Shown here piece after piece: positions 6,783-7,033 of a stretch of DNA of 10,975 bases. The notes below the pieces were generated by a model. That model saw only the letters and a program-made list of their open reading frames with translations. It did not search any database and had not been told where the DNA came from. The position numbers were made by a program, and so were the translations under genes. How positions within the stretch are numbered: the stretch's first letter is position 1; every line of letters begins with the position of its first letter. Origin of the DNA: a virus (Duplodnaviria > Heunggongvirae > Uroviricota > Caudoviricetes); IMG/VR virus record IMGVR_UViG_2545824708_000027, positions 1 through 10,975 of that record; one strand, 5' to 3'.

Positions 6783-6792
6783 TGTCAGGAGG

Positions 6793-6808
6793 CCGCCCGA
6801 AAGGGCGG
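6793..6808 (+). other. GC-rich stem-loop with GAAA tetraloop (CCGCCC-GAAA-GGGCGG) without a U tract; possible RNA stability/processing element or weak terminator
   Basis: Perfect 6-bp G/C stem plus GNRA loop, 11 nt after the stop of the 70-aa gene; an AGGAGG sequence sits immediately upstream (6786-6791); followed by about 85 nt lacking any long ORF. Confidence 0.5.
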
Positions 6809-6894
6809 TAATGAATGGTCACATTATTTAGAAAAAATATCCGCGAAAGAGTAGAACAACAGAATTTCTGTTTCTCATTCTGTTTATCGTGTTG

Positions 6895-7032
6895 ATGATA
6901 CCGATATCCCCGTTAATCCTAGTCTGGATAATCGGAATAATAATTGAGCCAGTTATTGAATTGTATAACGACGTGGTATGGGCGTCATTCAACACACTGC
7001 ACAATAAAATTAATCCGTATAAGGAAAACTGA
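6895..7032 (+). CDS. Candidate small hydrophobic (single transmembrane helix) peptide, 45 aa; manually found
   Basis: ATG 6895, translation MIPISPLILVWIIGIIIEPVIELYNDVVWASFNTLHNKINPYKEN, stop TGA 7030-7032 one nt before the next gene's ATG (7034). No SD; several rare ATA codons; in-frame upstream extension is also hydrophobic but lacks a canonical start. Confidence 0.3.
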   Translation: MIPISPLILVWIIGIIIEPVIELYNDVVWASFNTLHNKINPYKEN

Positions 7033-7033
7033 T

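Follow-up and report, generated by a model that had tools for sequence, protein, structure and literature searches.

The window analysed here (10,975 nucleotides (nt), positions 1 to 10,975 of IMG/VR virus record IMGVR_UViG_2545824708_000027) contains, between two rightward genes, an apparent 250-bp gap at 6783–7033, in which a hairpin is followed by a small hydrophobic open reading frame (ORF) of 45 codons. Judged from sequence, 6815–7032 is almost certainly a frameshifted pseudogene of the DUF4014 family (Pfam PF13198), and the interval as a whole is very probably best explained as a broken DUF4014 gene with a leader hairpin in a lambdoid early operon. For the most part there is little unusual in this: the frameshifted allele is common and already annotated, the small-protein family is known, and what accompanies it is a conserved leader hairpin. 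The 45-codon ORF offers nothing new; the unit made up of Shine-Dalgarno (SD) sequence, hairpin and AUG plausibly adds a further example of an initiation mechanism that is known but rare.

Frameshift origin of the 45-codon ORF

No plus-strand ORF of 60 amino acids (aa) or more lies within 6783–7033. The gap is only apparent, because two short plus-strand ORFs in adjacent frames, seen when ORFs were listed down to 20 aa, fill 6815–7032: one of 26 aa (6815–6895, translation MVTLFRKNIRERVEQQNFCFSFCLSC) and one of 47 aa (6889–7032). As the initial annotation had described, the 45-codon ORF runs from ATG 6895 to TGA 7030–7032, one base before the ATG of the next gene at 7034; no purine-rich SD sequence precedes it, and 5 of its 45 codons are ATA.

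When 6400–7400 was searched by megablast against 5,426 complete Escherichia coli genomes, ~99.8% identical copies were found in prophages of Shiga toxin-producing E. coli (STEC) of serogroups O26, O103, O111, O121 and O157. The equivalent of 6815–7032 in O26:H11 str. 11368 carries the RefSeq/PGAP label 'DUF4014 family protein, frameshifted'. Related prophages have an intact 72-codon gene with one base more (WP_000256993.1, WP_000209148.1, WP_000683609.1, WP_001142588.1 and WP_000256992.1). In alignments to these intact 72-aa proteins, 6815–6895 covers the first seven residues and 6832–7032 covers residue 7 onward; in the window the frame of ~72 codons is interrupted, and a stop follows after 26 codons. 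At the break, the DNA alignment with the closest intact allele, WP_000256993.1, showed a single difference: six adenines (A6; TTTAG-AAAAAA-TATCC) in the window and in O26, against seven (A7; AGA AAA AAA TAT, encoding R-K-K-Y) in the intact allele. Intact relatives have either A7 or AAAAGAA at this tract. The repaired 72-aa protein, MVTLFRKKYPRKSRTTEFLFLILFIVLMIPISPLILVWIIGIIIEPVIELYNDVVWASFNTLHNKINPYKEN, matched PF13198 from end to end (90.8 bits against a gathering cutoff of 23.2, 1–72/72, E=7e-26) and also phrog_1832 (E=7e-44), and the 47-aa version from GTG 6889 scored 58.8 bits over profile positions 26–72 of PF13198. The setting, tightly packed small accessory genes of a lambdoid early operon, is that of other DUF4014 members. 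The features of the interval and its flanks are as follows.

6570–6782, plus strand: upstream 70-aa gene, TAA at 6780–6782
6815–6895, plus strand: true start and frameshifted N-terminal ORF (26 aa: MVTLFRK plus 19 out-of-frame residues), from the ORF list and protein alignment
6832–6837, plus strand: A6 run, site of the 1-nt deletion, from DNA alignment and allele counts
6838–7032, plus strand: rest of the ancestral DUF4014 frame, residues 9–72 (YPRKSRTTEF...NPYKEN), open from 6832, from protein alignment
6895–7032, plus strand: 45-codon ORF, residues 28–72, comprising the second half of a Pro-kinked hydrophobic helix and the C-terminal helix, from the profile match and AlphaFold model
6938, plus strand: window-specific A-to-T change, Lys42 (AAA) to Ile (ATA), from alignment with homologues
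7021–7036, plus strand: AAGGA SD and ATG (7034) of the 87-aa gene that follows (phrog_1714), inside the 3' end of the DUF4014 frame, from sequence
6828–7106, minus strand: 92-aa antisense ORF, judged a shadow of the sense frame (phrog_20982, E=6.5e-27)

One A was lost from A7 at codons 7–9, leaving A6 at 6832–6837. Ribosomes starting at ATG 6815 would then read seven authentic codons, run out of frame and stop at TGA 6893–6895, yielding a 26-aa product; the ancestral frame stays open to 7032, and its internal Met28 codon at 6895 creates the 45-codon ORF. The alignments show this frameshift origin of the ORF, which lacks an SD because ATG 6895 is internal Met28 and was never a start site. The missing SD and the ATA codons had been taken as signs of tight control; they are instead what is expected when the ATG is a Met codon inside a phage gene rich in A and T, and one of the ATA codons is the window-specific K42I mutation. 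At least 90% of 40 homologues have Lys at position 42, where the window copy has Ile. The underlying change at 6938 is private to the window, being missing from the otherwise near-identical O26 and O157 copies, and fits relaxed constraint after the frameshift. What stood of the initial annotation is that the sequence derives from the coding region of a small helical membrane protein; the free-standing gene did not, the ORF being residues 28–72 of a DUF4014 protein 72 aa long. In DNA, the 3' end of this gene hardly varies between relatives, whichever gene comes next (a hypothetical gene, an HNH endonuclease or DUF551).

A second ATG at 6811, 4 nt before the true start, opens a six-codon mini-ORF (MNGHII) that ends with TAG at 6829. 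Its frame is that of the DUF4014 body in the A6 allele, so that amber read-through would join the two. The mini-ORF is probably coincidental; leaders of the TAAGAA type are without it.

DUF4014 is an uncharacterised family of small membrane proteins, found widely in lambdoid prophages, those with Shiga toxin included. PF13198 is present in all 144 database relatives (120 listed), and the sources name only Escherichia, Shigella and Salmonella as their organisms. Phage records with DUF4014 include 933W (L0067), VT2-Sakai (H0077), ArgO145, ES18 (gp39) and D6 (orf103; fused, 151 aa). The N-terminus of the protein is basic (FRKxYPRxSR). P30/P33 break up a hydrophobic stretch of ~27 residues, in which Kyte-Doolittle means over 19 residues reach 3.0, and the C-terminal part (EPVIELYxDVxW...LHNKINPYKE) is conserved. 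For an intact homologue, AlphaFold (pLDDT 82) models a kinked long helix (helix 14–28, kink 29–30, helix 31–66). By the positive-inside rule, the N-terminus should be cytoplasmic. The 45-aa fragment has neither this basic N-terminus nor the first half of the hydrophobic helix. Searches of NCBIfam and PADLOC gave no match for the DUF4014 protein, and no paper in the searchable literature mentioned DUF4014 or L0067. Some DUF4014 proteins carry functional labels: 'released from the phage upon host infection' in RefSeq/PHROG (NC_000902, NC_004913, NC_006949 etc.) and 'sugar acetyltransferase inhibitor' in some NCBI entries. No support for either label was traced in the searchable literature, and both look like propagated annotations.

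The initial annotation had proposed an independent, tightly controlled toxic or membrane-active small gene, or else a non-coding spacer. The stretch is indeed hydrophobic, and the ORF is small and lacks an SD, but it encodes only an internal piece of a protein whose Pfam family has 72-aa members, is located in an early operon and has no PADLOC or NCBIfam match, and the homologue alignment already contradicts the proposal, to which we give next to no credence. A non-coding spacer is contradicted by conservation of 89–99% as coding sequence, with third-position variation in excess. The type I toxin was rejected on several counts: 2 promoter-like matches were found against 2.8 expected in shuffles, promoter and antisense signals did not rise above chance, no Rfam family was matched, and the ORF is internal to a larger gene. 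An Rfam scan of 6400–7200 (E up to 10) returned two chance-level matches only, both elsewhere. A holin was rejected on position: DUF4014 is part of the early rightward operon, with replication-region genes on one side and DUF551/torI on the other, and is not in a lysis cassette. It is likewise scarcely credible that the real gene is the 92-aa ORF on the minus strand at 6828–7106. It does match phrog_20982, and its frame is open in 41 of 47 intact homologues. However, its wobble positions are shared with the sense frame, and an antisense stop can arise only opposite a sense codon for Tyr, His or Gln; the sense protein has few of these, and to this we attribute the openness. Single-step codon differences are synonymous in 64.5% of cases in the sense frame vs 54.3% in the antisense frame, sense codon position 2 is the least variable, and the antisense start would be a GTG inside the neighbouring gene, against the operon direction. 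phrog_20982 is the PHROG family of the DUF4014 shadow ORF; some phage annotations are presumably on the wrong strand.

Frequency of the A6 allele and its possible expression

Allele counts were obtained with 76/77-nt probes centred on the tract. For the window-type haplotype, complete E. coli genomes held 269 exact A6 copies and ~17–19 exact A7 copies (e.g. O55:H7); in IMG/VR the counts were 18 A6 and ~12 A7. The A7-to-A6 deletion arose independently in the divergent SS17-type haplotype (MKHYLEKNYP...), in which 7 of ~504 complete genomes held an exact A6 copy and most of the remaining ~497 were A7 (IMG/VR: 6 A6 and 29 A7 loci). No A8 allele was found in the IMG/VR sample, and about half of the DUF4014 family has AAAAGAA, without an A run. 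The A6 allele occurs in O26, O103, O111, O121, O157:H7 and ML35. At least one genome, E2865, has an A6 copy in one prophage and, in another, a second-haplotype copy of A7 length.

Other lesions of DUF4014 were also met. They include 54-aa truncated gene calls (P0099, 213 members), a variant (P0112) with its N-terminus read in the other frame, and deletion fusions in which the MKNRKAK gene upstream is joined exactly at ...LMIPISP (P0111, P0113). In the chimeras P0111, P0113 and P0119 the ...LMIPISP junction coincides with the start of the 45-codon ORF, and P0113 occurs on 17 contigs; these chimeras likely stem from deletion between adjacent genes. Homopolymer frameshifts seem common among these accessory genes: between IMG/VR loci L078 and L042, the hairpin-preceded gene VTELTKEKLIEE... 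differs by an A3-to-A4 insertion in one of the two.

We read the A7 run as a slippage or mutational hot spot, not as the site of a programmed event, the gene as dispensable in lysogens, and the high count as one A6 allele that spread with a successful prophage segment. The commonest DUF4014 allele in sequenced STEC genomes is broken; therefore, the gene is evidently dispensable for prophage persistence. A point against the pseudogene reading is that A6 is far commoner than A7 in its own haplotype, which could mean that the allele is tolerated, selected or partly rescued. The A7 run may also be a recurrent on/off mutational switch for a membrane protein costly to lysogens.

Could the A6 allele still be expressed? 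Ribosomes might shift by –1 on A_AAA_AAU (6832–6838), or transcription might slip on the A run, which would restore full-length protein and make the tract a low-level expression valve or phase-variable switch. The heptamer is in the correct phase, and a –1 shift would give a natural-looking MVTLFRK(N/K)YPRKS...; A6 predominates in its haplotype (269 vs ~19) and occurs in several serotypes, and the deletion recurred in the second haplotype. However, conservation of the tract is lacking: the run is missing from about half of the family, and most homologues are simply in frame. The heptamer ends in U, AAU being a poorer shifter, and neither an upstream SD-like nor a properly spaced downstream stimulator was found. 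In E. coli, heptamers without stimulators reached at most ~10 times a 0.055% background, and heterogeneous ZZN codons, AAU among them, were poorer shifters (PMC4066793). The missing A8 alleles in the IMG/VR sample, the E2865 genome with its A7-length second copy, and the low share of A6 in the second haplotype (1.4% of genomes), which fits sporadic mutation, also speak against recoding. We consider continued expression by these routes very unlikely, and programmed –1 frameshifting or transcriptional slippage was rejected on the unconserved layout, the poor heptamer and the missing stimulator. It is also unlikely, if a little less remote, that termination-reinitiation lets the 45-aa fragment be translated alone, to act as a truncated membrane peptide. 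The stop of the 26-aa ORF (UGA 6893–6895) overlaps AUG 6895–6897 in a UGAUG, the 26-aa ORF keeps an intact initiation region, and the natural chimeras P0111 and P0113 (17 contigs for the latter) set the C-terminal 45 residues in another context. Yet UGAUG is a by-product of the V-L-M-I codons and occurs in all alleles, the fragment is truncated at its N-terminal side as described above, and no sign of selection for it was seen; the window copy carries K42I at a conserved residue.

The leader hairpin and its intergenic module

The perfect CCGCCC-GAAA-GGGCGG stem-loop without a U tract, which the initial annotation had placed at 6793–6808, is present there, with the only strong SD on its 5' side and the true DUF4014 start codon on its 3' side. 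It is a real, conserved element and not a terminator. Its immediate features, and an upstream one discussed below, are these.

6787–6792, plus strand: AGGAGG, the SD, directly abutting the hairpin on its 5' side, from sequence (anti-SD duplex –10.3 kcal/mol)
6793–6808, plus strand: GNRA (GAAA) hairpin CCGCCC-GAAA-GGGCGG between SD and start, from sequence, folding and conservation
6547–6563, plus strand: 5' half of a conserved intergenic module (AATCCTTAACTGGAGG) and SD for the 70-aa gene 6570–6782, from motif search

The predicted hairpin energy is –12.4 kcal/mol for the 16-mer and –14.4 kcal/mol for the 18-mer, in which G6792 and U6809 can add a seventh pair to the stem. The hairpin is the sole element in the centroid fold of 6770–6850. 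On its 3' side follow a UAAUGA spacer, which holds no SD, and ATG 6815. The linear distance from AGGAGG to this ATG is 22 nt, and 6 nt when the stem-loop is looped out. By sequence alone the hairpin is unremarkable, because about one is expected per shuffled window (perfect 6-bp stems with at least 5 G-C pairs: 3 distinct sites in the window vs a shuffle mean of 1.1). It is conservation that validates it: the exact hairpin is conserved in >100 independent phage or prophage loci.

We think it very probable that the hairpin is part of the DUF4014 initiation region or of an intergenic module, and neither a terminator nor a stand-alone RNA. An intrinsic terminator was rejected: the stem is followed by UAAUGAAUGG with no U tract, and the terminator scan made no call on either strand within 6783–7033. 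A nut site was rejected as well, since the upstream sequence CAACGATTAATGTCAGGAGG contains no boxA-like CGCTCTT(T)A, the site lies ~4 kb downstream of cro, and the element recurs before start codons. The hairpin stays with DUF4014 where the upstream gene differs (O157 SS17, OkiPb01676, ArgO145 and others), and in those loci similarity to the window sets in immediately before ATCAGGAGG-hairpin; the gene to which the hairpin belongs is thus the one downstream of it. Where DUF4014 has no hairpin (933W, ETEC6, D6, Dewey, ES18), an ordinary GGAG stands close upstream of the start, and the gene is coupled to the preceding stop.

An exact 16-mer scan of IMG/VR gave at least 124 matches, and AGGAGG or a one-off variant was flush 5' of the stem in ~85 of the 124 matches listed. 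The start codon lies 6–11 nt past the stem, before at least 5–6 unrelated N-termini. The classes, with stem-to-start distance and number of loci among the matches listed, were as follows.

MRKFKIIIETG: 7 nt, ~30 loci
DUF4014: 6 nt, ~25 loci
M/VTELTKE: 9 nt, ~15 loci
MQD/EIKENIRQQL: 9 nt, ~3 loci
ME/GITKERLLEIA: 11 nt, ~6 loci
Other N-termini: no distance given, a few loci

Across 40 unique hairpin contexts, the SD core (positions –5 to –1) was 93–100% conserved vs mostly 72–82% at –22 to –9, and the spacer after the stem was A/U-rich. Stem variants in the DUF4014 context were CCGCCT/GGGCGG at 10 loci (U-G), CCGCCC/GGGTGG at 2 loci (G-U), and G6792A, which turns the G-U pair into A-U; variants with a mismatch occurred as singletons only. 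Changes were on a single side of the stem, and no double compensatory change was found in two IMG/VR scans, whose closely related copies leave this comparison underpowered.

The chances seem to us evenly balanced that the hairpin promotes initiation by bridging SD and AUG, a proposal made by analogy. The looped-out stem-loop would bring AGGAGG into register with AUG 6815, shortening 22 nt to 6 nt. Split ribosome-binding sites (RBSs) of this kind have been shown experimentally for T4 genes 38 (22 to 5 nt) and 25 (27 to 11 nt) (Nivinskas 1999; Malys and Nivinskas 2009; review PMC3014915). Several points weigh against bridging. No double compensatory change was found, and the evolutionary depth is shallow; recent common descent or a recombination linker could explain the conservation. 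From sequence alone, about one such hairpin per window is expected by chance. In the ME/GITKERLLEIA class, with its start 11 nt past the stem, bridging is unneeded because the gene has its own GGAG after the hairpin. The 3' arm GGGCGGU is moderately complementary to the anti-SD (–7.8 kcal/mol), at good spacing, and could pair with it were the stem to open; therefore, the hairpin could mask a weak SD and act as an inhibitory stem.

The hairpin is also embedded in a larger module. In other phages the module is contiguous, ~75 nt long, and reads TTTAATCCTTAACCGGAGGGATTTCTGCACCCTCAGAACATCAGGAGG-hairpin; in the window its halves (6547–6563 and 6783–6810) flank the 70-aa gene 6570–6782. The module flanks different small accessory genes in lambdoid phages (loci L015, L016, L018–L020 and L021–L140). 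Two copies of the hairpin stand ~1 kb apart in one operon at L039 and L067, each before a start codon, and the gene order around the module is permuted in these ATCC 25922-like prophages. The module looks like a cassette-exchange junction that marks cassette boundaries. Conserved stem-loop modules mediate shuffling in the PeSL cassettes of T4-type phages (PMC2839356, PMC4122927).

These observations raise a substantial possibility, compatible with our best explanation, that the hairpin is not translational but an intercistronic structure for mRNA stability or processing, or a linker for cassette exchange by homologous recombination. The module with its varied small genes, its split halves around the 70-aa gene, its doubled copies in one operon, the gene class with its own SD after the hairpin, the lack of compensatory covariation and the PeSL precedent are all on the side of this explanation. 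On the other hand, the start lies 6–11 nt past the stem in every gene class, the four largest classes have an A/U-rich spacer with no SD of their own, and nothing else in the flank is as well conserved as the AGGAGG that abuts the stem. The abutting AGGAGG and the placing of the start weigh against a pure linker or stabiliser, which would need neither. Tentatively, AGGAGG-CCGCCC-GAAA-GGGCGG-(6–11 nt)-AUG could be a portable lambdoid split RBS, its GNRA hairpin looped out on the 30S subunit to let a distant SD drive initiation, that doubles as a homology patch for swaps of small accessory-gene cassettes.

Prophage context and comparison with known systems

The window comes from a lambdoid E. 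coli prophage of Rac/KplE1-like type, of which it forms the right arm. In order, its genes are a CI-like repressor (minus strand), Cro, YdaT-like, O-like, DnaC-like, DUF1627, DUF977, a Zn-ribbon protein, the 70-aa gene, the broken DUF4014 gene, the 87-aa gene, DUF551, ASCH, torI and a LacY-family transporter (minus strand). No complete E. coli genome covered 80% or more of the window; the best had 67% coverage at 94% identity (1–7349), and for 7400–10975 there were 99% matches to other strains. As a whole, this mosaic prophage is missing from the complete RefSeq E. coli genomes. The gene for a TorI-like excisionase (8998–9198) is near the right end, and a full-length LacY-family (oligosaccharide major facilitator superfamily) transporter lies at 9728–10975 on the minus strand, with the final three bases of the window as its start codon. 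The window has no tRNA gene, and the prophage-host junction is probably at ~9200–9700. The 268-aa DUF551 gene (7308–8114) is intact in the window; in O26:H11 11368 (L001 7409–8278), two partial pseudogene fragments and then a separate short DUF551 gene are annotated after the shared 87-aa gene.

The case carries a practical lesson: where a gap holds a small hydrophobic ORF without an SD, a homopolymer frameshift in a known small gene should be looked for first. In the present case, doing so disposes of what had seemed a new toxin or small protein. The SD-hairpin-AUG unit is the one element that deserves a bench test.

Compared with type I toxins (Hok, Ldr, Ibs, TisB) and class III or pinholin-like proteins, the 45-codon ORF shares the character of a small, very hydrophobic helical prophage peptide, but here there is no antisense RNA, dedicated promoter, long structured leader or lysis cassette. 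The in-phase A_AAA_AAN heptamer at a two-frame junction resembles dnaX and IS911 (A_AAA_AAG plus stimulators); unlike in those systems, the last base is U, neither an upstream SD-like nor a spaced downstream stimulator is in place, and the shift is absent from most homologues. With PF13198/PHROG 1832 itself (933W L0067, VT2-Sakai H0077, ES18 gp39, D6 orf103), the repaired translation shares the whole 72-position profile and the length, and the gene shares the accessory position in a lambdoid early operon and the stop 1 nt before the next start; the window copy differs from these members in being frameshifted (A6 for A7) and in K42I.

For the hairpin, two comparisons apply. Like PeSL cassettes and lambdoid boundary sequences, the short stem-loop module here flanks variable small ORFs and coincides with mosaic joints; unlike PeSL, no promoter-like element was identified in the module, and it is gene order only that suggests recombination. 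Unlike T4 genes 38 and 25, the unit here is of unrelated sequence, belongs to temperate lambdoid phages and is reused before unrelated genes, and its function is one that we infer. It shares with them a strong SD at an overlong distance (22 nt here and 22 nt in gene 38) with a stable stem-loop in between, and the effective spacing would be 6 nt, against 5 nt in T4 gene 38 and 11 nt in T4 gene 25. If the SD-hairpin-AUG unit does work like T4 gene 38, it would be a second natural family of split RBSs and a compact, transplantable initiation module reused before several genes.

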